A stretch of DNA of 32,000 nt from Candidatus Iainarchaeum sp. (GTDB lineage: Archaea; Iainarchaeota; Iainarchaeia; Iainarchaeales; VGJJ01): the NCBI GenBank assembly GCA_030688545.1, contig JAUYHT010000002.1, forward strand, positions 30,001 to 62,000, given 5' to 3'. A program made the position numbers and the translations under genes. Shown one piece after another: positions 2,975-32,000 of the stretch. The stretch's first letter is position 1; each line of letters opens with the position of its first letter. Below the pieces are notes generated by a model. That model searched no databases. It was not told where the DNA came from and saw nothing but the letters and a program-made list of their open reading frames with translations.

Positions 2975-5020
2975 TTACAACAAGAACAAAGGAGCCAGCA
3001 CCAGGCTCAATGTCCCCACGAGCTTGATGACCACGTGCAGGGAGGGGCCGGCGGTGTCCTTGGCGGGATCTCCTACTGTATCTCCGACTACGGCGGCCTT
3101 GTGGGCATCGCTTCCTTTTCCCCCATGGGGGCCGGATTCGATGTATTTCTTGGCATTGTCCCAGGCCCCCCCGGCATTGTTGAGGGTGAGGGCCAGCATA
3201 ATCCCTGTGAGGGTGGTGACTAATATGTAGGCTCCCGCGGCTTCCGCTCCCAGAATCATTCCCACTCCCAAGGTAAGCCCCACCACGAGCAGGGAGGGGA
3301 GCACCATCTCCTTCAATGCGGATTGGGTGGCGATGTCCACGGCTTTGGCATAATCGGGTTTGGTTTTACCTTGCATAATCCCTTTTATCTCACGGAATTG
3401 GCGCCGGACTTCCTGCGCAATGGCTCCGGCGGCCCGGCCAACGGCACGCATGGCAAATGAAGAGAATAGGAACACCAGCATCGCCCCCATCATTCCCCCC
3501 ACGAACACGGGGAGGGAGGCCAGATTGATGACCACTAAACCTGTTTCTACCATGTAGGCGGAGAACAATAGGAAGGCCGCCAACCCGGCTGAACCAATGG
3601 CATACCCTTTGGTCAACGCTTTGGTGGTGTTGCCCGCGGCATCCAGGCGATCCGTTATCGCCCGCACCTTTTCAGGGGCATGGGACATCTCCACGATGCC
3701 GCCCGCATTATCAGAAATAGGACCGAAATTATCCATCGCCAACACATACCCGGCCGTCAATAGCATTCCTATTGTCGCCATGGCGGTGCCGAACAACCCC
3801 CCTTGGGGAAGACTCGTGGCATCGCCCAAGGCAAAGGATACGAGAAGGGCGACACCAAGTACTACCGCGGGCAACGCCGTGGTCTCCATCCCCACCGCTA
3901 ACCCGGCGATGACATTGGTTCCCGCTCCCGTCTCGGAGGCGGCCGCGATATCCTTCACCGGTTGAGAATCGCGCTCGGTGTAGTGCATGGTGATATACAC
4001 CATCGCCAAACCCGTGAGCAACCCAATGATTCCCGCGCCGAAAAGGAGGAGGTTGTTATCCAAATACACGTAAACGGCGGCGTACAAGAGCACGGCCGCG
4101 AGAAGGGTGGTGAGCCAATAGCCCCGCTTCATAGCTTTCATGGGATTTTCCTGGTGTGAAATTCTTACGCTCATTATTCCCACCACGCTGGCCACCAAAC
4201 CTAATGCCATGGCCACCAAAGGGAATAGAATACCCGCGATCCCGAATATTGGGAACAAGGCCACCCCCAAAATCATGGCTCCAATGTTCTCGGCCGCGGT
4301 GGATTCGAACAAATCCGCGCCCCTTCCCGCGCAATCCCCCACATTATCCCCCACCAAATCCGCGATGACCGCGGGGTTGCGAGGATCGTCCTCGGGGATC
4401 CCGGCCTCAAGTTTCCCCACCATGTCGGCGCCCACATCCGCCGCTTTAGTATATATTCCTCCTCCCAACTGAGCGAACAAAGCAATGAGACTCGCTCCGA
4501 AACCAAAGCCCACGATCTTCAATGGGGCTTCCATAGGATCATCTCCCGAAAACACGAAGAAGAGAATAGAGATACCCAATAATGACAGCGCGAGAATAAC
4601 CAATCCGGATACTGCCCCTCCGCGGAACGCGGCGAGGAACGCCTCATTCAATCCCTCATTAGCAGCCGTGGCCGTGCGCAGATTGGCTTTCACCGCGACG
4701 CGCATACTGACATAGCCCGCGAGTCCCGAGGAGAAAGCCCCCAGGATGAAAGAAATGGTTGTTACGAAAGCCAAATTAAAATTACCCCACCAAGTATATC
4801 CAATGAGGATGACAAGAGCAATAATGATGCCAATACTCCCGATGCTGGTATATTGACGCTGAAGGAACGCATTGGCCCCTTCCTGAATAGCCAGGGCAAT
4901 CTCCTTCATGCGTGGGGTTCCTTCCTCCCCCTGCATGACGCGGTCGAGCATCCATTTGGCCATGAGGATGGCAAGGAGGCTGATCCCCCCCACCAAGTAG
5001 AGCATGTCGATTCCTTCCAT
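2975..5020 (-). CDS. hppA: Membrane-bound proton/sodium-translocating pyrophosphatase
   Basis: Signature GDNVGDCAGRGADLFES, DVGADMVGK and a polytopic membrane profile. I start it at MEGIDMLYLVGG (ATG 5020), because the first 49 codons of the listed ORF overlap the upstream gene and look non-coding. Confidence 0.93.
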   Translation of the reverse strand: MEGIDMLYLVGGISLLAILMAKWMLDRVMQGEEGTPRMKEIALAIQEGANAFLQRQYTSIGSIGIIIALVILIGYTWWGNFNLAFVTTISFILGAFSSGLAGYVSMRVAVKANLRTATAANEGLNEAFLAAFRGGAVSGLVILALSLLGISILFFVFSGDDPMEAPLKIVGFGFGASLIALFAQLGGGIYTKAADVGADMVGKLEAGIPEDDPRNPAVIADLVGDNVGDCAGRGADLFESTAAENIGAMILGVALFPIFGIAGILFPLVAMALGLVASVVGIMSVRISHQENPMKAMKRGYWLTTLLAAVLLYAAVYVYLDNNLLLFGAGIIGLLTGLAMVYITMHYTERDSQPVKDIAAASETGAGTNVIAGLAVGMETTALPAVVLGVALLVSFALGDATSLPQGGLFGTAMATIGMLLTAGYVLAMDNFGPISDNAGGIVEMSHAPEKVRAITDRLDAAGNTTKALTKGYAIGSAGLAAFLLFSAYMVETGLVVINLASLPVFVGGMMGAMLVFLFSSFAMRAVGRAAGAIAQEVRRQFREIKGIMQGKTKPDYAKAVDIATQSALKEMVLPSLLVVGLTLGVGMILGAEAAGAYILVTTLTGIMLALTLNNAGGAWDNAKKYIESGPHGGKGSDAHKAAVVGDTVGDPAKDTAGPSLHVVIKLVGTLSLVLAPLFLL

Positions 5021-5105
5021 TCCAATTCCCCTCCACCCCTCCAGGGGGGTGTGATGGGGGAACCCAACACGGAACCATTTAAAAAGGTGCGAGCGAACCC
5101 CGTGA

Positions 5106-6065
5106 TCAGGATACCCCAAACCCATTTCCAGATGACAGAGCCAATTGCACCGCCACGAAAACCACATACAGACCGATTAATGCATACCCTTCTCTCTGGG
5201 TCAATTTTCCCCCGCTATCCATGAGTGTCGTCACCAAAAGGGCGGCGAACACCATAAAGAGAGTGGCAATCCCTACCGCTCCCACATCGACGGCCACCGG
5301 GGAAATAAGCGCCAACACCCCCAAGGCAAACGTCGAATCAATCATCACATTTCCCATGATGTCTCCCACCGCAATGGCTTTATGGCGGGACAGCACCGCT
5401 TTAACAGAAAGGGTGAGTTCGGGCAATGCCGCTCCAATGGAAATGAGGAACAACCCCGCGAAAAGCGCCGGGATGTTCAATCCATCCGCTACATTCACTG
5501 CCGACTCCACCACAAAATGGGCGCTCCCAAACATCACCAGCATGGCCGCCCCAAAAAAAAGGAGGGGCTTCATGAGCAAGTGGCGCCGGACGGGCCTCTT
5601 TTTATCCTGCATCGCGTGCTGGGAAAAGATACGGATGAAATAAATGAGCGCCGCGATAACGAGTAACAACCCATCTAACCTATTGAGATTGCCATCGAGC
5701 ATGAGTCCTAATGGTAACCCTACCATGATGAGGAAAGGCAATGCCCCCGAACGCTCAGATCTGGAAACAGGAATATCTTTTCCCAGGATGGCAATAATAC
5801 CAAAAACCAAAGTGAGGTCCACGATGTTGTTTCCGATGAGCGTGCCCACCCCCACGATGGGAACCCCTTCCAGGGCTGAATTTACTCCCACGAAGAACTC
5901 GGGGAGCATGGAAATGAATCCCCCCAGGACGAAAGCAGTGATGAATTCGGAGATATAGAACACCCGCGCCAGATTGGTCACTTCTTTCACGGCCATGGAT
6001 GCCGTCTTTACCAGAACGATACTCGAAAGAAGGAAAACGGCTCCCTGCACGTAAAGGTCTTCCAT
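5106..6065 (-). CDS. Ca2+/cation antiporter (CaCA, YrbG-like sodium/calcium exchanger family)
   Basis: Two alpha-repeat-like segments (GNNIVDLTLVFG, GDIMGNVMIDSTFALG) in a protein with about 10 TM helices. The start is set at MEDLYVQGAV (6065). The longer listed ORF would overlap the divergent gene at 6117. Confidence 0.8.
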   Translation of the reverse strand: MEDLYVQGAVFLLSSIVLVKTASMAVKEVTNLARVFYISEFITAFVLGGFISMLPEFFVGVNSALEGVPIVGVGTLIGNNIVDLTLVFGIIAILGKDIPVSRSERSGALPFLIMVGLPLGLMLDGNLNRLDGLLLVIAALIYFIRIFSQHAMQDKKRPVRRHLLMKPLLFFGAAMLVMFGSAHFVVESAVNVADGLNIPALFAGLFLISIGAALPELTLSVKAVLSRHKAIAVGDIMGNVMIDSTFALGVLALISPVAVDVGAVGIATLFMVFAALLVTTLMDSGGKLTQREGYALIGLYVVFVAVQLALSSGNGFGVS

Positions 6066-12924: not shown

Positions 12925-13236
12925 AGGTGAGTCGCCGGCCGTAAGCGGCCTTCTGTTCTGTCCCCATTCGCCTAAGCGTCGTCGCGACTTGCACTCCTCC
13001 GGCGGGAACCCGTTTCAATGCGCGTGCCGGAACGTCCTCTCTTCGATTCATCCTGCCCGGCAGGGCAGACCGTTTCTGTGCTCCCGCGGCCGCTCCCGCA
13101 GCCGGACGGAGATTGACCGAGTGGGCCGACTTTCCTCAGCAGTCGTTCGCAAGAGAGGCTGACAGTCGGTGCCCCATCCTAGGGGCGGGAGGCCGACCTC
13201 TCCTATTGACCACCGTCGGGGGACCACCGGCGACTC
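12925..13236 (-). ncRNA. rnpB: RNase P RNA (archaeal type)
   Basis: The minus strand reads GAGTCGCCGG...CTGAGGAAAGTCGGCC (CR-I GAGGAAAGTC at 13128-13137)...GCACAGAAACGGTCTGCC...GGACAGAACAGAAGGCCGCTTACGGCCGGCGACTC. The 5' GAGTCGCCGG (13236-13227) and 3' CCGGCGACTC (12938-12929) form a perfect 10-bp P1 helix. Length is about 310 nt and the region is GC-rich. ORFs 12857-13051 and 12914-13162 are artefacts. Confidence 0.85.
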
Positions 13237-15777: not shown

Positions 15778-15789
15778 GTGTAAGAATTC

Positions 15790-18740
<2,951 letters not shown>

Positions 18741-18774
18741 GAATCTCTTACACTCACTTAAAATTTTGGGAACA

Positions 18775-19479: not shown

Positions 19480-20205
19480 ATGGAACATTCAATGAATTCC
19501 GTCGATATTGATGCCTATAAGGAATACAATAAGTACATGGATTTTCAGAATCGGCGCTTAGATTATGTGAAAGCCATCAAAGAATCGATACGATTAGCAG
19601 CGAAGTATACCCAGAATAAAGAAGGTCTTGTAGTTGCGGATTTTTGTTGCGGAACGGGGAATAATACCAAGTTACTCGCAGAGAAGGTTGGCTCTCTTGC
19701 CAAGGTTTTGCTGGTTGATATTAACAAGGGTTTTTTGGATATTGCCAGGCAATCCGAAATAAAAAGCAATGAACTAAAATTTTATAATGAAGACATTTTG
19801 AACGTGGAGTTTGAAAAGGAATGCGACCTTGTCTTATCCGTATTTGCGTACCATCATGTTAAAGATTCTGAGAAGCACCGATACATTGAGCAGATTAAAA
19901 GCTGCCTAAAAGATGGTGGATTTCTAATTCTCACAGAGATTTTTCTCGAAAACAGACAAAAGTGTATTAATTATTATGAAAAACTATTCTCTGCTATTCC
20001 AGTCCAAGACCGAATTCCAGGGTTGGAAAACTTTTTGATGCAAACCGCTCTGAGCAATGATTTTGAATTTAAGATTGGAAAAAAAGTCGCTGATGCCCAG
20101 TTTAGAAATGCTGGCTTCAAGCTTGTTGAGGAAACCAAAATATGGCCTTTAGATAACGCGATGAAAAAAGATGAAGGAACGTTCGTCCAAGTTTACAAAT
20201 TTTAG
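19480..20205 (+). CDS. Class I SAM-dependent methyltransferase
   Basis: Motif I VVADFCCGTGNNT, acidic post-I LLVDIN, and motif II/III region DLVLSVFAYHHV...LKDGGFLIL. The gene is markedly A/T-rich. Confidence 0.8.
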   Translation: MEHSMNSVDIDAYKEYNKYMDFQNRRLDYVKAIKESIRLAAKYTQNKEGLVVADFCCGTGNNTKLLAEKVGSLAKVLLVDINKGFLDIARQSEIKSNELKFYNEDILNVEFEKECDLVLSVFAYHHVKDSEKHRYIEQIKSCLKDGGFLILTEIFLENRQKCINYYEKLFSAIPVQDRIPGLENFLMQTALSNDFEFKIGKKVADAQFRNAGFKLVEETKIWPLDNAMKKDEGTFVQVYKF

Positions 20206-20402
20206 GTCGTTTTCGGGAGAACCCTTCCTGCTTTAGCAGGCCGATGAATCCCGCCACCGTTTGCTTCGGTTATCCTTTTTTCCGTTCATTTAATCGGACG
20301 CGGGGCACTTCAGTGCCCCCTAGTTCACAAGTCAAGCCATGATTGAAAAATTTGTTTTTTTAAGTGAATAATGATTAAATAGGGTATATCTGTCTAAAAT
20401 TG

Positions 20403-20915
20403 ATGGAAGTTCTATTAGTCATTGATATGCAAGAAGGCTTTCGATACTTGGATTCCGAACGTATTTTGGAAAGGGTTGGAAAAATCCTGCAAAAAATCTC
20501 TCCTAACTACTACTTTTCTCGTTTCAAAGACAAGAAAAATTCAACTATTGAGAAGCACACATTGTGGAAAAAATTTCAAGACCAAAAGGCATGGCCCATA
20601 ATGAGTGAAATTCGTCATTTTTCTAATAAAAATAACACATTCGATCACTATACTTACACCGTGCTAACTCCATATTTGAAAAAGGCATTCACGAAAAGAC
20701 ACGTCAAAACTGTATATTTAGCTGGAATATATACCGACGTCTGTGTAATCAAAACGGCAATGGATCTCATTGATGAAGGAATCCAAGTAAAAATAATCCA
20801 AGATGCATGTGCTTCATTACATGGAGAAATTAATCATAAGCAAGCAATTGACTCACTCAAACACATCATCGGGAGAGATAACGTCATCAAGTCCAATATG
20901 ATCAGGAAAACTTAA
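20403..20915 (+). CDS. Isochorismatase/cysteine-hydrolase family protein (nicotinamidase-like)
   Basis: LLVIDMQEGF (catalytic Asp) and GIYTDVCVIKTAMDLIDEGIQVKIIQDACAS (catalytic Cys context). The ATG at 20403 is one codon after the listed TTG. The gene is A/T-rich. Confidence 0.8.
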   Translation: MEVLLVIDMQEGFRYLDSERILERVGKILQKISPNYYFSRFKDKKNSTIEKHTLWKKFQDQKAWPIMSEIRHFSNKNNTFDHYTYTVLTPYLKKAFTKRHVKTVYLAGIYTDVCVIKTAMDLIDEGIQVKIIQDACASLHGEINHKQAIDSLKHIIGRDNVIKSNMIRKT

Positions 20916-22552: not shown

Positions 22553-22624
22553 TGGACCCGGCGGGACTTGAACCCGCAACCTTCTCGTTGCAAACGAGAC
22601 GCGCTACCATTGCGCCACAGGCCC
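22553..22624 (-). tRNA. tRNA-Ala (anticodon UGC), no encoded CCA
   Basis: Reverse complement: GGGCCTG TG GCGC AATGGTA GCGC G TCTCG TTTGCAA CGAGA AGGTT GCGGG TTCAAGT CCCGC CGGGTCC A. The G3-U70 alanine identity pair is present. Confidence 0.92.
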
Positions 22625-25560: not shown

Positions 25561-26103
25561 TTAGCTGGGACAATGTGATTGGCCTGTTTTTTCCAAATAC
25601 ATTTGATGATATTCCTCGGCCCGATAGAAGACTGAAGCCGGTTCGATGGTCGTCGTGATGGGAAGGGGGTATTTTTTTGAAGCGATTTCCTGTTTTATTG
25701 ACTTTTCAGCCGTCGCCAGTTGCGCTTGGGAATGATAGAAAATGACACTCCGGTATTGGCTCCCCCTGTCAGGACCTTGCCGGTTTCCCTGGGTGGGATC
25801 ATGGATGTCCCAGAATACGCGCAAGAGGGCATCATATGAGACTTTTTTAGGGTCGAATGACAAGTGGCACACCTCCACATGCCCGGTTTTTCCCGAGCAT
25901 ACTTGGGCATACGTCGGGTGAGCCTTTGTTCCCCCCATAAAACCAACCGTCGTATCCACTACGCCATTCACCCGGCGGAAGGATTGTTCCACCCCCCAAA
26001 AACAGCCGGCCCCGAAGGTGGCTAATTCGAACTTACCTGGGATGGGTAGTGGAGTCACGCCTACTCCAAATACGTTCCACTCTATAAAAATAGGTGCCGG
26101 CAC
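25561..26103 (-). CDS. msrA: Peptide methionine-S-sulfoxide reductase
   Basis: GAGCFWGVE active site, [19 protein letters not shown] and YHQMYL. GTG start as listed; the true start is uncertain. Confidence 0.92.
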
Positions 26104-27176: not shown

Positions 27177-27818
27177 TCACTTCTGTAGCAATTTGAAGGC
27201 GTGGTTCCAGTGATTATTGAAGAATCCATAGTGGGTCCACAGGATAGCCATGTTTTCAAGGAGGTAACTTTGAGTGATGTCTCCCAGATCATGGACCTCC
27301 CACCCCACCCCCTTTACAAATTCACTCACTTGCTGTTTGGTGGGGGCATCGTTTCCGCAAATGAATAAGGTGGGGGTTCCATCCTTTAATGCAGGATTAA
27401 GCATGTAGGCCGCGGTAACGATGTTGAAGCATTTCACCACTTTGGATTGGGGTAACAAGTCTTGCACCCGCTTTCCCATGGAATCCGGATACACGATTCC
27501 GGGCACCGGAGGCTTTCCTTCAACCTCGAATTTCAATGGGTTGGTGGTGTCGATGACTATCTTCCCAGAAAAATGCTCCTTTTTGGCCAATTCAATGGCA
27601 TTTTCCACCCCATCCCACTTGGTGCAGAGCACGAGCCACTCCCCAAATTTAGCCGCCTCCTCATTCGAAGCTGCGCAGGCAGAAACTCTTTCCTTCTCCA
27701 ACTCCGCATTCGCCTTTTCAGGGGAACGCGTTCCCAGCACGACTTGGTGCCCCAAGCGAATAAAATCCTTAGCGAGGGTCCTTCCCACGGACCCTGAACC
27801 AATGATGCCTACCTTCAT
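27177..27818 (-). CDS. NAD(P)-binding oxidoreductase of the F420_oxidored / NADPH-dependent F420 reductase (NpdG)-like family
   Basis: Rossmann motif KVGIIGSGSVGRTLA and the overall NpdG-like length and pattern. The start is chosen 8 nt after aggaggg; alternatives run up to 27827. Confidence 0.7.
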   Translation of the reverse strand: MKVGIIGSGSVGRTLAKDFIRLGHQVVLGTRSPEKANAELEKERVSACAASNEEAAKFGEWLVLCTKWDGVENAIELAKKEHFSGKIVIDTTNPLKFEVEGKPPVPGIVYPDSMGKRVQDLLPQSKVVKCFNIVTAAYMLNPALKDGTPTLFICGNDAPTKQQVSEFVKGVGWEVHDLGDITQSYLLENMAILWTHYGFFNNHWNHAFKLLQK

Positions 27819-27904
27819 ACTCATCACCCTCCTTCTGGTGATAGATTAGGACAGGTACACTGGGGCCAATTAAAGATATGCCAATATGTTTTTCTCAAAA
27901 AGAA

Positions 27905-28404: not shown

Positions 28405-29115
28405 TCAGATGATGGACGCAGCCATATACAACCCTAATGCAATGAGGAATAGACCAATGCCCAACCGCATGAGTCCGCGGTTCTCTTTCCGCCAGGCCTC
28501 CATCTTCTTGGAGGTGGTGCCAAAATACATCAGGCCGATGATGACGAACAAGGGAAGGACGAAGACGAGGTTATACAAAAGGAGTAAGGGAATTCCCTCC
28601 GCTAAATTGCCTGCCGATAACAATCCCAACACCGCCAGATAGGGCGCTCCCGTGCAGGGCAATTCGATGAAAACCACGAATATCCCTAACACGAATGCGA
28701 AGGCAATCGCGAGGAAGGGGTGTTTCATCTCCAAGTTTTTGAAAATGGAGGTATAGTGTTTGACCCGTTCCGCCCCCCCGGGAAGGATTTGGAGGGAAAA
28801 CCCTTTTCCGTACCAAAAGTAATCCTTGATCTCCAACAACCCGGCTAAAATAGCGATGATGGCCGCTAACCAATAGAAACTGATGGATAGGCCGGTGTTC
28901 AGGGCCAGGTGAAGGATGCCTAATCCCAAAACGAGGTAGGTGAGGTAGACGGCCACCACATAAATCAGGCCGGCGATGAGCATCCGACGCTTGTCTTTCT
29001 TGAAAACGGCCTTCATGTAAGCCAGGAGGAAGATGAGCACCCCGAAGACGCAGGGATTAATGCTGTCCGCAAGCGCCGCCCCAATGACTAATGGGAGGGT
29101 GAGTTCTGTGACCAT
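28405..29115 (-). CDS. CcdA/DsbD-family thiol:disulfide electron-transfer membrane protein
   Basis: Six to eight TM helices with the two hallmark membrane-embedded Cys motifs, SINPCVFGVL and ELPCTGAPYL. Confidence 0.8.
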   Translation of the reverse strand: MVTELTLPLVIGAALADSINPCVFGVLIFLLAYMKAVFKKDKRRMLIAGLIYVVAVYLTYLVLGLGILHLALNTGLSISFYWLAAIIAILAGLLEIKDYFWYGKGFSLQILPGGAERVKHYTSIFKNLEMKHPFLAIAFAFVLGIFVVFIELPCTGAPYLAVLGLLSAGNLAEGIPLLLLYNLVFVLPLFVIIGLMYFGTTSKKMEAWRKENRGLMRLGIGLFLIALGLYMAASII

Positions 29116-29132: not shown

Positions 29133-29525
29133 TCACGCGCCCGTCCCCGGATAGGGACACCCGGTCAATTCTTCCAACTCCTGATAGGTGGCCAACCCTT
29201 CAATGCGCCCTAATTCCTGTCCATCCACTTCCCTCACCCACGTGGGGGTTTTGGCGATATTCTTTTCCAGGCATAATTCCACTTGGGGATTTTCCCCATT
29301 GGGATGGCATTCTATTTCGATGATTTTTTCGAACGCGGGACCAAACTCCTCCCGCTGCTTCTTGCAGGAGAGGCAGGTGAACGACCCATACATGAGAGTG
29401 TCGCTGTCGGTAATACATTGGGCGAAGGCCGTGAACGCCGGGGTTTGCGGATGCGCCGTGCTTCCCCCGACACAGCCTGCTAATACGATGAGGGCAATCA
29501 TTCCGATGGCTAACATAGTTTTCAT
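29133..29525 (-). CDS. Extracytoplasmic thioredoxin-fold CxxC lipoprotein (DsbA-like partner of VKOR)
   Basis: Lipobox LAGC after MKTMLAIGMIALIV, and a CLSC redox motif. It resembles the Trx-like domains fused to bacterial VKORs. The ATG at 29525 overlaps the VKOR TGA (ATGA). Confidence 0.7.
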   Translation of the reverse strand: MKTMLAIGMIALIVLAGCVGGSTAHPQTPAFTAFAQCITDSDTLMYGSFTCLSCKKQREEFGPAFEKIIEIECHPNGENPQVELCLEKNIAKTPTWVREVDGQELGRIEGLATYQELEELTGCPYPGTGA

Positions 29526-30055
29526 GCGCGTTTTCCTCCCGTTCTTCGCCAATGGACAAAGGCCCAAAGGACGATTAAAAGTAATACCGTATGTGAGAAT
29601 ATACACCAGGTGCAGATGGCGTCCAAAACATAGAGCATGAGATAGACGAAATACATCGCTCCCAGGAACATCAGACCGCCCGCGATGGCAATAATCTTTA
29701 ACGCGGTTTCCTGGGCTAATCGCTTATGCCATCCCCCCCAGGCGATGAGGAAAAAGAAGGCGAATCCTAATATTCCGAATACCGAAACAGGAATGCCAAA
29801 CATCTCGGAGTACACACTGTTATTCACAAAATCACAATTACCCCCAATAGGGCAGGCCGTGGAGGTGTCCGAGAGTTTGTTATAGAGGAGGATGGAATCA
29901 ATGCCAATTCCAATGAGCGCCAGAACCAGGATGACCATCCATTTGGTATTATGGGCTTTCTGGGAAGCGTTTTTGGAAGAAGGAGATGACAGGCCGGGTG
30001 AGGAAACCTTGGGTTTCCTCTTATTACGAGCGGGAGGCATGCCTGCAACACCCAT
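29522..30055 (-). CDS. Vitamin K epoxide reductase (VKOR) family protein
   Basis: Loop Cys pair ACPIGGNC, and the TM CxxC motif ICTWCIF after the conserved SxxGxP-like segment (SEMFGIPVSVFG). Four to five TM helices. Confidence 0.85.
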   Translation of the reverse strand: MGVAGMPPARNKRKPKVSSPGLSSPSSKNASQKAHNTKWMVILVLALIGIGIDSILLYNKLSDTSTACPIGGNCDFVNNSVYSEMFGIPVSVFGILGFAFFFLIAWGGWHKRLAQETALKIIAIAGGLMFLGAMYFVYLMLYVLDAICTWCIFSHTVLLLIVLWAFVHWRRTGGKRA

Positions 30056-30112
30056 TTCCCATTTTTAAATGATATAGTTTCACCCCCGTTATCCGTTACG
30101 CGCAGGTTTAAG

Positions 30113-31435
30113 ATGCGGAAAACCATTGTGGAGAGGATGCCGGGGGCCCACCTCACCAAAATCATCTCCTGCCTGGACGAAAACCAAAAGGGCTTGCTCA
30201 AAGAAAGCCCCCACTCGGTGATTGTTGCCGATATGGAAGGGCATGTGGTGGCCTGCAATGCGGGGGCCGGGGACTTATTTGGGTATACGAAAACAGAGAT
30301 GATTGGCACCCATGTCAAAGTTTTCCATCCCCCCCAAAATTATGCCCGGATCCTCCCTGAATTGTTTCGCACGGCCCTGCAGAAAGGAATTTATGATCAG
30401 ATTATTACCCTCCAGAAGAAAGACCACCAACCCTTTCTCGCCCGCATCATCGTTACGCGCATCCTCGGAACGGATGGAAAGCCCATTGCCCTCATGGGGG
30501 TTACCTCGCCCGCCCAAAAAGCCCCCTCTATTGGTTTTATCGCCACTTGGATTAGGGCCCTCCGCGCGCCTTTCTTCACGGCAACCCTCATCCCTATTTT
30601 TTTAGGAACCGCCATTGCCTTCTCCGCTACGGGAACATTTTCATTCTGGCCATTCTTCTGGACGGTATGGGGCATGCTCTTCATCCACGCGGGAGTAAAC
30701 TTAGCCAATGATTATTTCGACCATCAAACAGGGAATGATGAATTGAATCCGCACCCCACGCCCTTCAGTGGGGGCAGCCGGGTGATTCAGGAAGGATTGG
30801 TGGCTCCGAATACGATAAGGAATGTCGCCCTCCTCTGCCTCGCCGTTGGATCCCTCATCGGATTATATCTCAATTCCCTTGTCCCGGGGAACCTCATCCT
30901 GGTTTTAGGGGTTTTGGGAGTGGGTATCGGATTCTTCTATAGCAGCCCACCCCTCGCGGCGAGCTACAAACGATTGGGGGAATTATGTGTCGCTTTAGGA
31001 TTCGGGCCCCTCATTGTATTAGGCAGCTATGTCGTCCAAACACAATCCTTTTCCATTATCCCCTTGGTGGCCTCCATCCCCATCGCTTTGCTCATCGTTG
31101 GGGTCCTATTCCTCAACCAGTTCCCCGATTTTGAGGCTGATGTGAAATCACAGAAGCGAAACCTGTTGAACACTTGGGGCAAACCCACGGGGGTCAAACT
31201 CCTCACCTATGGAGTGGCGGCTGTTTTCATATTCACGGGAGCAGGGGTCATATCTGGATTATTTCCCCCGCTCGCGGGACTTACATTACTGGCGCTCCCC
31301 TTCGCCTACGCCATGCTCACCACGCTCCGCACCCACTATGATCAGGTGCTCGAATTGCTCCCCGCCAACGCCAATATGATCAAATTGCATTTTACCTATG
31401 GATTGCTTTTTACTATTGCTTTCCTGGTGGGATGA
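30113..31435 (+). CDS. menA: PAS domain fused to a 1,4-dihydroxy-2-naphthoate polyprenyltransferase-like UbiA-family enzyme
   Basis: Residues about 25-135 form a PAS fold (SPHSVIVADMEGHVVACNAGAGDLFGYTKTEMIG...KDHQPFLARIIVTRILGTDGKPIALMGV). The remainder is a polytopic UbiA enzyme with MenA-type motifs NLANDYFDHQTGND and NQFPDFEADVKSQKRN. Confidence 0.82.
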   Translation: MRKTIVERMPGAHLTKIISCLDENQKGLLKESPHSVIVADMEGHVVACNAGAGDLFGYTKTEMIGTHVKVFHPPQNYARILPELFRTALQKGIYDQIITLQKKDHQPFLARIIVTRILGTDGKPIALMGVTSPAQKAPSIGFIATWIRALRAPFFTATLIPIFLGTAIAFSATGTFSFWPFFWTVWGMLFIHAGVNLANDYFDHQTGNDELNPHPTPFSGGSRVIQEGLVAPNTIRNVALLCLAVGSLIGLYLNSLVPGNLILVLGVLGVGIGFFYSSPPLAASYKRLGELCVALGFGPLIVLGSYVVQTQSFSIIPLVASIPIALLIVGVLFLNQFPDFEADVKSQKRNLLNTWGKPTGVKLLTYGVAAVFIFTGAGVISGLFPPLAGLTLLALPFAYAMLTTLRTHYDQVLELLPANANMIKLHFTYGLLFTIAFLVG

Positions 31436-31441
31436 TATCGC

Positions 31442-32000
31442 ATGCCTGTTCATTTTTCTATGCCATTTGAAAAGAATATAACTCTTGAAATGGATTCAAA
31501 TTACACCCAAAAAGTGCAGGAAGCCGTGCGCCATGGGAAACACGTCCGACCTTGGCTCATGCGCCGTGTCTGCGAAAAAATGGATCTGGATTACAAACCC
31601 CTCGAAGCGGCCGCGATGGGCATCGAAATGATCCATCAAGCCTCCCTTCTGCATGACGATGTCATTGATGGGGACCTGGAACGCCGGGGAACAGAAAATG
31701 ATGCCGCCCAGAATGGGGTTTCCCATTCTATTCTTTTTGGAGATTTCCTTTTCCTCCAAGGGATGAAACACTTCCATGAATCTCAATACCCCCCTGCCAT
31801 CCCCCGCGCCGTCGTGGAAACGGTCAGCGGAATGGCCGAGCACCAATTGAAAGAGAGCGAGGGACGGATAACGGATTTGGATGCCTACCTCGCCTACGCG
31901 GAAGCCAAAACCGGAGGATTGTTCGCCCTCTGCGCCCGCATTCCTTTGCTGTATTATGAAATGAATCATCCCCCTGCGGAAACATTTTCCCACCACTATG
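31442..32000 (+). CDS. Polyprenyl diphosphate synthase (trans-isoprenyl diphosphate synthase family), N-terminal part; continues past the window end
   Basis: Open frame from the ATG at 31442 to the edge (not in the ORF track). My translation includes AAAMGIEMIHQASLLHDDVIDGDLERRG (first DDxxD / FARM motif) and KTGGLF. The listed minus-strand ORF 31496-31996 is its antisense shadow. Confidence 0.85.
   Translation, partial: MPVHFSMPFEKNITLEMDSNYTQKVQEAVRHGKHVRPWLMRRVCEKMDLDYKPLEAAAMGIEMIHQASLLHDDVIDGDLERRGTENDAAQNGVSHSILFGDFLFLQGMKHFHESQYPPAIPRAVVETVSGMAEHQLKESEGRITDLDAYLAYAEAKTGGLFALCARIPLLYYEMNHPPAETFSHHY

Follow-up and report, generated by a model that had tools for sequence, protein, structure and literature searches.

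A PAS domain fused to a MenA-class membrane prenyltransferase beside a VKOR operon in Iainarchaeota

In menaquinone synthesis, prenylation is usually regarded as a membrane reaction that stands alone and is not regulated. Prokaryotic VKORs hand electrons to UQ or MK (PMC4555120, PMC13486548). We analysed a 32-kb stretch of DNA (hereafter the window) of archaeal origin (Iainarchaeota, DPANN), in which a preliminary description had pointed to a PAS sensor domain fused to a MenA-type prenyltransferase, flanked by genes for quinone tail synthesis and quinone use. Below we establish that this fusion is genuine and recurrent, place it among its relatives and its neighbouring genes, and weigh what the PAS domain might do.

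A PAS domain fused to a membrane prenyltransferase

The fusion gene is an uninterrupted open reading frame with zero in-frame stops, closed by a TGA at 31433-31435, and comprises the following features (window coordinates):

30113..31435, + strand: PAS-UbiA (MenA-class) fusion gene, 440 aa from an ATG; probable true start M9 at 30137 (432 aa)
30143..30205, + strand: two-helix N-cap before the PAS core, residues 11-31 (AlphaFold2/DSSP); weakly conserved, 38% mean identity
30209..30505, + strand: PAS core, residues 33-131, a five-stranded sheet with a long F-alpha helix (74-91)
30506..30547, + strand: variable linker, residues 132-145 (~14 aa), 35% identity, without frameshift or stop
30548..31432, + strand: MenA/UBIAD1-class UbiA domain, residues 146-440, nine TM helices, N-in
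30707..30739, + strand: first Asp-rich motif (cytoplasmic loop 2-3), N199-D-Y-F-D203-H-Q-T-G-N-D209, which aligns with that of UBIAD1
31127..31141, + strand: second Asp-rich motif (cytoplasmic loop 6-7), D339-F-E-A-D343, from the translated sequence

The protein probably begins at M9, which is the likelier start because NCBI calls a protein of 432 aa, homologues begin at M9 and residues 1-9 have a pLDDT below 50. Profile and structure comparisons bear out the two-domain architecture originally proposed. The N-terminal part passes the cut-offs of three Pfam PAS models (PAS_9 over residues 33-125, 39.4 vs 27 bits; PAS_4, 38.0 vs 23.1; PAS, 28.3 vs 22.6) and of the NCBIfam sensory_box model TIGR00229 (34.4 bits vs 22.9), and the remainder belongs to the UbiA superfamily, with 105.8 bits vs 34.2 on PF01040 (residues 159-407), two Asp-rich motifs and nine long helices. 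AlphaFold2 yields a canonical PAS fold, with strands at residues 35-40, 44-48, 93-101, 107-118 and 124-133, followed by the nine helices; pLDDT in the PAS region is 76-96 per 10-residue block and about 90 for most, and Foldseek matches the PAS part to the 3lyx PAS (TM 0.88) and to the FAD-PAS of NifL (2gj3, TM 0.85). The whole chain is modelled with pLDDT 91.9-92.0 and pTM 0.83-0.85, the latter suggesting, for a two-domain chain, a defined packing of PAS and prenyltransferase. Loop K+R counts of nine on the cytoplasmic side and zero outside give an N-in topology, which places the PAS on the same membrane face as the active-site loops.

The fusion is genuine and not an assembly artefact, since the same PAS/UbiA junction occurs in 16 Iainarchaeota-type clusters and, beyond these, in over 100 clusters that stem from separate assemblies (NCBI, JGI, ENA and Logan), including the complete genomes CP064981.1 and CP075526.1. 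An identical protein is present in both a Logan assembly and an NCBI MAG, the 24.7-kb Logan twin contig (L002) carrying the window locus and an extra 10 kb downstream. The preliminary description had itself named two things that would undo its reading, a failure against PAS HMMs and a frameshift or assembly join. The PAS HMMs are passed; no frameshift or join was found, the frame is continuous, and the linker is modelled with a pLDDT of about 86, which together leave a frameshifted or chimeric union of a PAS gene and a MenA gene with a vanishingly small probability.

Within the Iainarchaeal group, the PAS core has a mean pairwise identity of 69% vs 64% for the catalytic domain (linker, 35%), and across 118 fused proteins the corresponding values are 59% and 47%. 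The PAS core, the better conserved of the two domains, is therefore functionally essential, and the fusion stands under strong selection. Its polar invariants in Iainarchaeota (H67, H72, N76, R86, T87, Y94, D95) are not conserved in other lineages in alignments of the fused proteins, and the invariants held across lineages (G43, F56, E62, G92, G129) are only generic structural, fold-determining residues. An HMM of the Iainarchaeal PAS scores 63-72 bits on the Micrarchaeia, P0134 and P0166 PAS domains and 27-52 bits on those of the Neomarinimicrobiota/Chloroflexota group, the latter about the same as on the unrelated 3lyx PAS.

The suggestion that the fusion implies ligand, redox or light control of prenylation goes beyond the sequence and is inference only. 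Light sensing is rejected because the position of the photoactive LOV Cys is occupied by Val68, invariant in the 118 fused proteins, if the LOV motif GxNCRFLQ is placed on the PAS as we assume; the position of the LOV Gln is His, Ser or Tyr. Heme sensing of the FixL/DosP type is likewise rejected, as the alignment to FixL has no conserved His where FixL carries its own (Ile80 region) and hence no proximal His on F-alpha, with His67 and His72 lying before F-alpha and not conserved outside Iainarchaeota. Neither the sequence alignments nor the cross-lineage invariants yielded a ligand or cofactor signature, and it is as a possible ligand or redox input that the PAS is considered below.

Turning to the prenyltransferase domain, both Asp-rich motifs are invariant in alignment A2 (105 fused and unfused relatives) and in alignment A5, and all 30 columns invariant across the 105 relatives are retained (including N199, D200, D203, D209, D339, D343 and K348); with its catalytic motifs intact, the enzyme is predicted to be catalytically competent. 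On profile evidence, MenA/UBIAD1 is the best class assignment within the UbiA superfamily: the ten best NCBIfam matches are nine MenA-type models and PRK05951 'prenyltransferase' (46-151 bits; top three 137-151), while the remaining UbiA classes score about 30 bits or less (PRK12884, 30.6; ChlG, 26.6). The best PDB match to the catalytic domain is UBIAD1 (E=5e-26 by sequence; Foldseek TM 0.80). The epithet 'MenA-type' therefore holds for the class but not at the level of equivalogs, as all MenA equivalog cut-offs are missed (TIGR00751, 78.1 vs 102.15; TIGR02235, 150.8 vs 225; NF004749, 143.2 vs 277; NF004751, 137.5 vs 264). On TIGR00751, unfused relatives (P0044, P0049, P0122) pass with 120-137 bits and other PAS-fused proteins fail with 96.7-101.1 bits, and PAS-fused catalytic domains are systematically farther from canonical MenA than unfused ones. 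Since the cut-offs are missed while unfused relatives pass, the head group may not be DHNA.

Distribution of the fusion and its genomic neighbourhood

N-terminal accessory domains are common in the MenA subfamily to which the fusion protein belongs, and the premise that MenA/UbiA enzymes normally stand alone fails for it: of the 150 best representatives at 50% identity that an exhaustive search gave, 41 carry an N-terminal domain (9 PAS, about 30 PNPOx-like, 2 with an unassigned domain). The PAS and UbiA combination, for which a domain-architecture search had been proposed, is present in about 118 of the best 120 clusters at 90% identity in a profile search, spread over many phyla. Hosts include Chloroflexota, Bacteroidota, Ignavibacteria, Neomarinimicrobiota, Thermoplasmatota and DPANN, and seven or more lineages of bacteria and archaea have the fusion, a recurrence with a parallel in the PNPOx-like fusions; in many other members of the subfamily, a PNPOx-like FMN-binding domain takes the N-terminal position. 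A neighbour-joining tree of catalytic domains, which carries no support values, puts PAS-fused proteins in four groups and PNPOx-fused proteins in about four; such a tree does not establish monophyly of the fusion, and we likewise do not claim independent origins. We found no description of the PAS-UbiA/PAS-MenA architecture, or of the Iainarchaeal quinone/VKOR module, in the literature searched for them; the architecture is widespread yet unstudied.

In the window, the fusion gene has the following neighbours:

28405..29115, - strand: CcdA/DsbD-TM-like thiol-disulfide membrane protein, 236 aa, with NPC and LPCTGAP motifs; weak SfLAP/DsbD_TM matches
29133..29516, - strand: Trx-like VKOR partner, 127 aa, with signal peptide, LAGC lipobox-like motif and CLSC
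29522..30055, - strand: VKOR homologue, 177 aa; loop cysteines in ACPIGGNC, active site CTWC
30056..30112, no strand: divergent VKOR/fusion spacer, 57 bp, TATA-box-like TTTTTAAATGATATAG, 60% A+T
31442..32000 (cut by the window end), + strand: short trans-polyprenyl diphosphate synthase, 246 aa when complete in L002

The VKOR homologue scores 84.2 bits vs 27.5 on PF07884 and has ACPIGGNC, NSVYS and CTWC in its translation; its K/R-rich N-tail suggests an active site facing outward. Its partner is similar to the Trx-like part of the Synechococcus VKOR (3kp9, E=4e-13). The divergent arrangement across a 57-bp gap is as first described, and the gap had been taken for an A/T-rich shared promoter: a TATA-like box is present, but the A/T richness is only mild (60% vs a window mean of 51%, with 18% of all 57-nt windows equally rich). 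Because the host is archaeal, a shared promoter would be of TATA/BRE type, and with a start at M9 the spacer would be 81 bp, not 57 bp. On the other side, the polyprenyl synthase ATG at 31442 lies, as reported, 6 nt past the TGA of the fusion gene. The synthase scores 90.6 bits vs 27 on PF00348, with FARM DDVID and a SARM-like DDLSE (last Asp replaced by Glu), and falls below all chain-length-specific NCBIfam cut-offs.

The preliminary description had noted that genes for making the tail, for prenylation and for using the quinone (VKOR) lie together; this arrangement is real and extends beyond this genome. A module of CcdA-like protein, Trx-like lipoprotein, VKOR, PAS-MenA and short polyprenyl synthase is common to four independent Iainarchaeal genomes (window/L002, L001, L003 and L004/L005), whose flanks otherwise differ. 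The fusion and IPPS genes share 4 nt in L001 and L004. Micrarchaeia have the fusion gene immediately ahead of an operon for another quinone user, succinate dehydrogenase/fumarate reductase (complex II). No quinone-related neighbours of the fused gene occur in free-living bacteria and Thermoplasmatota, and no shared neighbours surround it in Anaerolineales, Ignavibacteria, Thermoplasmatota and Neomarinimicrobiota. The window and the extra 10 kb of L002 contain no naphthoate-pathway (men/mqn), UbiE/MenG-grade methyltransferase or quinol oxidase genes. Two candidates in the window were rejected: a methyltransferase (19480-20205) reaches 51 bits on UbiE models vs a cut-off of 216, and an isochorismatase-family ORF (20400-20915) resembles nicotinamidases/hydrolases and bears no relation to MenF or MenD.

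Possible roles of the PAS domain and the module

Architecture, conservation, distribution, topology, catalytic motifs and synteny are observed; the identity of the head group, the coupling of quinone to VKOR and, above all, a regulatory role for the PAS are what we infer. The explanation we propose, to which we give roughly even chances, is that PAS-MenA is a two-domain enzyme at the centre of a self-contained lipoquinone module for extracytoplasmic disulfide-bond formation, with the PAS as its allosteric input. Through the short linker, a cytoplasmic PAS is tethered to the first helix of an aromatic polyprenyltransferase of MenA/UBIAD1 class. The short polyprenyl synthase would supply the tail, which PAS-MenA would join to a naphthoquinol head group (DHNA or an analogue obtained by salvage). 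The membrane quinone so formed would then accept electrons as VKOR re-oxidises the secreted Trx-like lipoprotein, a presumed equivalent of DsbA, and the CcdA-like protein would supply an opposing reducing branch. Within this scheme the PAS would most likely be a built-in input through which a cytoplasmic small-molecule or redox signal tunes prenylation.

The PAS could instead be a non-sensing structural module that dimerises the enzyme or docks a partner (e.g. the polyprenyl synthase or VKOR-side components), a real possibility if an unlikely one. Cross-lineage invariants that only determine the fold and the failure of the sequence and FixL/LOV comparisons to reveal a cofactor motif would both fit such a module, as would the predicted two-helix N-cap, PAS domains often dimerising via N-cap helices, and the 4-nt gene overlap in L001 and L004 is consistent with stoichiometric co-production. 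However, a core more conserved than the catalytic domain, with many Iainarchaeal polar invariants, looks more like a ligand pocket or specific interface than a generic dimeriser, and the N-cap, the usual dimer element, is itself poorly conserved (38%). We consider it rather doubtful that the PAS handles the head group, binding a flavin or naphthoquinone so as to capture, present or keep reduced the aromatic acceptor (prenylation requires the quinol form), although this would permit an organism with a genome of ~1 Mb to salvage exogenous naphthoquinones. The position it occupies seems to be a recurrent docking site for cofactor-type domains, given PNPOx_N at the same place in about 30 of the 150 best representatives and a third domain in two; its best structural matches besides 3lyx bind flavin (the NifL FAD-PAS, LOVs and Aer); and the position that we take to correspond to the LOV phosphate-binding Arg, in the motif GRNCRFLQ, is always K/R in the 16 Iainarchaeota-type proteins. 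The distance of PAS-fused catalytic domains from canonical MenA points the same way, as does UBIAD1, the closest solved catalytic homologue, which prenylates a salvaged, menadione-derived head group. Against this, no PAS domain is known to serve an enzyme fused to it as reductase or substrate carrier, no recognisable conservation is seen at the residues through which LOV and NifL contact flavin (Val for the LOV Cys; His, Ser or Tyr for the Gln), and the PAS and PNPOx folds are unrelated, making any functional equivalence an analogy only.

Quite improbable, finally, is that the catalytic domain prenylates another acceptor (a lipid precursor, a pigment or another aromatic) and that the VKOR neighbourhood is coincidental. 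The missed equivalog cut-offs, an NCBI label that reads only 'UbiA family prenyltransferase' and the lack of men genes in the window and L002 would allow it; but MenA-type models outscore PRK12884 and ChlG, the protein is 45-51% identical to unfused proteins that pass TIGR00751 and keeps all of their invariant residues, and there is conserved synteny, with VKOR in four genomes that otherwise differ in their flanks and with the complex II operon in Micrarchaeia.

If the PAS is an allosteric input, as we propose, a built-in domain that is better conserved than its enzyme would convey a signal directly to a polytopic biosynthetic enzyme, and not via transcription. The conserved operon suggests that reduced DPANN archaea maintain a quinone pool of their own whose main use is the oxidative folding of proteins that are secreted or lie at the surface, which raises the questions of the head-group source and the quinol re-oxidant. 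MenA is an antibacterial drug target, and natural regulatory modules on it could inform on it as such. More speculatively, and in our judgement with a rather low probability, the N-terminal modules of MenA-class enzymes (PAS, PNPOx-like FMN barrels and the third domain type) might constitute a layer of lipoquinone biosynthesis, for control or for handling the substrate, that has so far gone unrecognised. They would sense or bind the naphthoquinone head group or keep it reduced, or else follow the redox state of the quinone pool, and so gate prenylation directly at the enzyme. Iainarchaeota with genomes of ~1 Mb and no evident respiratory chain might thereby salvage exogenous or host-derived naphthoquinone, add their own tail and power VKOR-driven disulfide formation on surface proteins.

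Comparison with known systems

Canonical MenA (TIGR00751/PRK06080) shares with the fusion protein the UbiA fold, both Asp-rich motifs and an N-terminal W..ALRAPFF motif. The fusion protein differs from it in adding a 145-residue N-terminal PAS module, in missing the equivalog cut-offs, in having no men operon context and in its archaeal (DPANN) host. UBIAD1, the eukaryotic MK-4 synthase (PDB 8djk), is likewise of MenA class and uses a salvaged naphthoquinone head group, but it has no PAS, is 22% identical to the fusion protein and, according to the PDB title, has its own regulation via binding of HMG-CoA reductase. A parallel in architecture is offered by the uncharacterised PNPOx-like-MenA fusions (e.g. 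P0127, P0128, P0165), which combine the same catalytic subfamily with a soluble cofactor-type domain of ~150 residues at the same cytoplasmic N-terminus and occur in some of the same phyla, e.g. Neomarinimicrobiota; their N-terminal FMN-binding split barrel, however, has a fold unrelated to PAS, and their catalytic domains pass the MenA cut-off (P0128, 116 bits).

Signalling PAS domains (3lyx of a GGDEF protein, NifL 2gj3, LOV, Aer and FixL/DosP) have the same fold as the fusion PAS (TM 0.82-0.88, rmsd 1.8-2.9 A) and the S-box signature FGY..E.IG in common with it. Their outputs are a kinase, cyclase or transcription factor, whereas here the output is a polytopic biosynthetic enzyme, and unlike the flavin and heme sensors among them the fusion PAS has no LOV Cys, FixL His or recognisable flavin set. 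As for the neighbouring operon, Synechococcus VKOR-Trx (3kp9) and bacterial DsbA/VKOR systems have four catalytic Cys and a CxxC Trx-like partner, as here, with a quinone as the electron acceptor. The Iainarchaeal partner is a separate lipoprotein-like gene, unlike the 3kp9 fusion, and in contrast to both of these systems the Iainarchaeal VKOR operon is physically linked to its own genes for quinone prenylation and tail synthesis.

A PAS domain fused to a MenA-class prenyltransferase

The fusion of a PAS domain to a membrane prenyltransferase proposed in the preliminary description is confirmed by PAS HMMs, the AlphaFold2 fold and Foldseek matches. It is encoded by a single gene:

30113-31435, + strand: PAS-UbiA fused ORF, a single uninterrupted 440-codon frame

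Pfam assigns residues 159-407 to UbiA (105.8 bits; cut-off 34.2) and residues ~29-131 to PAS, where three models exceed their gathering scores (PAS_9, 39.4 against 27; PAS_4, 38.0 against 23.1; PAS, 28.3 against 22.6); the NCBIfam sensory-box model also passes its cut-off. Two AlphaFold2 runs, one using 105 fused and unfused relatives and the other 118 fused proteins only, were concordant (mean pLDDT 91.9 and 92.0; pTM 0.83 and 0.85), both predicting a two-helix N-cap (11-31) and then a canonical five-stranded PAS core (33-133), which a short linker and an interfacial helix (142-150) join to nine long helices. The N-terminus matches 3lyx (TM 0.88) and the NifL FAD-PAS (0.85), as well as LOV, Aer, DosP and FixL, and the remainder matches UBIAD1 (TM 0.80), archaeal DGGGPS and AfUbiA. 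Translation probably starts at M9 (30137), as the NCBI protein has 432 aa, homologues begin at M9 and both models leave residues 1-9 disordered.

The exact protein is present in NCBI ('UbiA family prenyltransferase [Candidatus Diapherotrites archaeon]'), and the same gene was recovered independently from a Logan assembly. Fifteen more clusters (54-62% identity) equal it in length and architecture. In a profile search, PAS+UbiA clusters make up ~118 of the 120 best matches, two of them from complete chromosomes (CP064981.1 and CP075526.1). An artefact caused by a frameshift or assembly join between 30500 and 30560 can thus be set aside, and the N-terminal region passes the PAS HMMs.

Nine of the ten best NCBIfam matches are MenA-type models, the tenth being PRK05951 'prenyltransferase', and the three strongest score 137-151 bits, compared with only 30.6 for PRK12884 and 26.6 for ChlG. 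UBIAD1 is the closest solved homologue (E=5e-26). When the protein is aligned with 89 unfused relatives, it keeps each of the 30 invariant columns, both Asp-rich motifs (N199, D200, D203, D209; D339, D343) among them. Because MenA models lead, UBIAD1 matches best and every invariant column is retained, assignment to the MenA/UBIAD1 class, substrate apart, is sound. The description as MenA-type therefore holds for the class but not for the strict TIGR00751 equivalog, on which the fused protein scores only 78.1 of the required 102.15 bits. Two other PAS-fused proteins reach 96.7 and 101.1 bits, unfused relatives (45-51% identity) 120-137 and a PNPOx-fused relative 116. The PAS-fused catalytic domains thus consistently lie somewhat further from canonical MenA, which explains NCBI's generic name.

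Distribution of N-terminal fusions

We searched 1.84 billion representatives exhaustively with a fused profile (HMMER) and examined the best 150. These hold the Iainarchaeal family together with eight other PAS+UbiA clusters and ~30 clusters of 50%-identity representatives with an unrelated N-terminal domain, identified by Pfam as PNPOx_N, an FMN-binding split barrel; to call MenA 'stand-alone' was accordingly an overstatement. PAS fusions with a named source come from Micrarchaeia, Neomarinimicrobiota (a 97-member cluster), Chloroflexota/Anaerolineales/Dehalococcoidia, Saprospiraceae, Ignavibacteria and Thermoplasmatota, and PNPOx fusions (434-594 aa; P0127, P0128, P0131, P0146 and P0165 among them) from Neomarinimicrobiota, Endomicrobiia and Hodarchaeales. 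The PNPOx-MenA architecture appears uncharacterised, and hints that prenylation is coupled to a redox or cofactor function. Two MenA-class clusters among the 150 (P0138 and P0175) carry a third type of N-terminal domain, ~190 residues long and unmatched in Pfam. P0121 (4799 aa, 31 PAS-like stretches) ranked second through its PAS repeats only and is unrelated to the fusion.

PAS-fused catalytic domains do not group together in a rough neighbour-joining tree without support values, a scatter that repeated gains, losses or swaps could produce. The literature searched holds no description of PAS+UbiA or related N-terminal-domain architectures; PAS-MenA is common in sequence databases, where it goes under generic names, but uncharacterised in that literature.

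A proposed quinone and disulfide module

The fused gene belongs to a module whose order and orientation are conserved in four independent Iainarchaeal genomes, represented by window/L002, L001, L003 and L004/L005, with differing flanks:

CcdA/DsbD-TM-like protein, same strand as VKOR: 233-236 aa; NPC and LPCTGAP motifs
Small Trx-like partner, VKOR strand: 123-127 aa; signal peptide with LAGC, plus CLSC
29522-30055, divergent from the fused gene: VKOR; loop cysteine pair and CTWC site
31442-32000 (8774-9514 in L002, the Logan contig), + strand: short polyprenyl synthase of 246-261 aa across the loci

VKOR scores 84 bits, and the small partner matches the Trx-like domain of Synechococcus VKOR (3kp9, E=4e-13). 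The divergent VKOR, the 57-bp spacer and the synthase ATG 6 nt past the stop are all as first described. The spacer, previously called A/T-rich, is only mildly so (60% against 51% for the window; 18% of all 57-nt windows are equally rich); it holds a TATA-box-like TTTTTAAATGATATAG, with comparable boxes in homologous spacers of other loci. An archaeal 23S rRNA (2488 bits) and archaeal RNase P RNA in the window fit the Diapherotrites/Iainarchaeota (DPANN) label, so that promoter logic should be TATA/BRE rather than sigma-70.

The synthase has a FARM of DDVID with Ala/Ser at -5/-4 and a SARM-like DDLSE, a pattern compatible in enzymes of this kind with a product longer than C20; it falls below every chain-length-specific NCBIfam cut-off. 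At 246-261 aa, against ~320 typically, it ends ~50 residues past DDLSE. The polyprenyl synthase would make the tail, PAS-MenA would prenylate the head group, and the quinone would drive extracytoplasmic disulfide formation via VKOR. This simplest reading, a self-contained unit, draws on the conserved module, which bears out the proposed clustering of tail synthesis, prenylation and quinone use, and on the use of UQ or MK as electron acceptor by prokaryotic VKORs (PMC4555120, PMC13486548). It gains support from Micrarchaeia (L008 1240-5966), where PAS-UbiA, preceded by a NifU-like gene, lies directly ahead of a co-directional succinate dehydrogenase/fumarate reductase operon (sdhA/sdhB/CCG-subunit genes). 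The loci examined from free-living bacteria and Thermoplasmatota have no quinone-related context at the fusion gene, and from ~42 kb (the window plus L002) men and mqn genes, a convincing MenG/UbiE and a quinol oxidase are all absent. A class I SAM methyltransferase (19480-20205, +) has UbiE/MenG models as best matches, but at 51 bits against a cut-off of 216 it scores too low to be assigned as the quinone C-methyltransferase.

Several further features were observed. VKOR here has 177 aa with a ~40-residue Lys/Ser/Pro-rich N-tail, and its orthologues in three other loci (L001, L003, L004) are tail-free at 140-155 aa. Just beyond the module, in this genome only, MsrA (25561-26103, -) and a sub-cut-off NADPH-dependent F420-reductase-like gene (npdG-like; 27177-27827, -) could form a local redox-repair neighbourhood. 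L001 has a different methyltransferase ~2 kb away from its module. In a Neomarinimicrobiota locus (L006 7823-11984), PAS-UbiA has a HamA_HO-like gene upstream, a TENA/Haem_oxygenase_2-like gene downstream and a radical-SAM gene (UPF0004); the heme-oxygenase-like and radical-SAM genes could take part in making an aromatic head group. The 23S rRNA gene (15779-18750, -) has no adjoining 16S inside the window, and tRNA-Ala(TGC) (22553-22624, -) lies 3.8 kb away with three plus-strand protein ORFs between, so the rRNA operon appears dispersed. The RNase P RNA match (12929-13175, -) spans only 247 nt, scores 84.9 against a gathering threshold of 84, and may be a reduced form. A membrane H+-translocating pyrophosphatase (2975-5167, -; 843 bits) is a possible route of membrane energisation, with no respiratory genes in view.

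Role and position of the PAS domain

Mean pairwise identity among 16 Iainarchaeota-type proteins is 69% in the PAS core, 64% in the UbiA domain, 35% in the linker and 38% in the N-cap (59% and 47% for PAS core and UbiA domain across 118 fused proteins). Since the core exceeds the UbiA domain while linker and N-cap drift, the PAS core is functionally indispensable. Invariant polar PAS residues in Iainarchaeota are H67, H72, N76, R86, T87, Y94 and D95, with K or R at position 69, and only fold-type residues (G43, F56, E62, G92, G129) are invariant across lineages; the 118 fused proteins share G43, F56, Y58, E62, V68, F71, P73 and G129, and G92 nearly so. The earlier suggestion of light control is unsupported, and so is FixL-type heme sensing, because the position aligned with the LOV cysteine is Val and the FixL heme histidine has no aligned counterpart. 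The domain may or may not bind a flavin or small molecule.

The interpretation first offered is borne out in part. We regard the fusion architecture and module as very probable, and the whole chain of our preferred explanation, in which a PAS-regulated MenA-class prenyltransferase supplies the quinone for a VKOR disulfide system, as evenly balanced. A true sensor role for the PAS domain is a tentative reading, somewhat short of even. That the domain is instead a structural or dimerisation module would fit the invariance of only fold-type residues across lineages, though less readily a core more conserved than the catalytic domain, and seems unlikely; by analogy with the PNPOx fusions it might handle the head group or serve as a redox module, which we think less likely still.

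All nine loop Lys/Arg residues and both Asp-rich loops fall on the N-terminal side of the predicted helices, with no loop Lys/Arg opposite. This shared side, with an N-in topology, places the PAS domain in the cytoplasm, tethered beside the catalytic cap by a ~14-residue linker; the high pTM hints indirectly at a fixed packing of PAS against cap. The predicted topology agrees with UbiA-family structures (ApUbiA, AfUbiA), which are N-in with a cytoplasmic active site.
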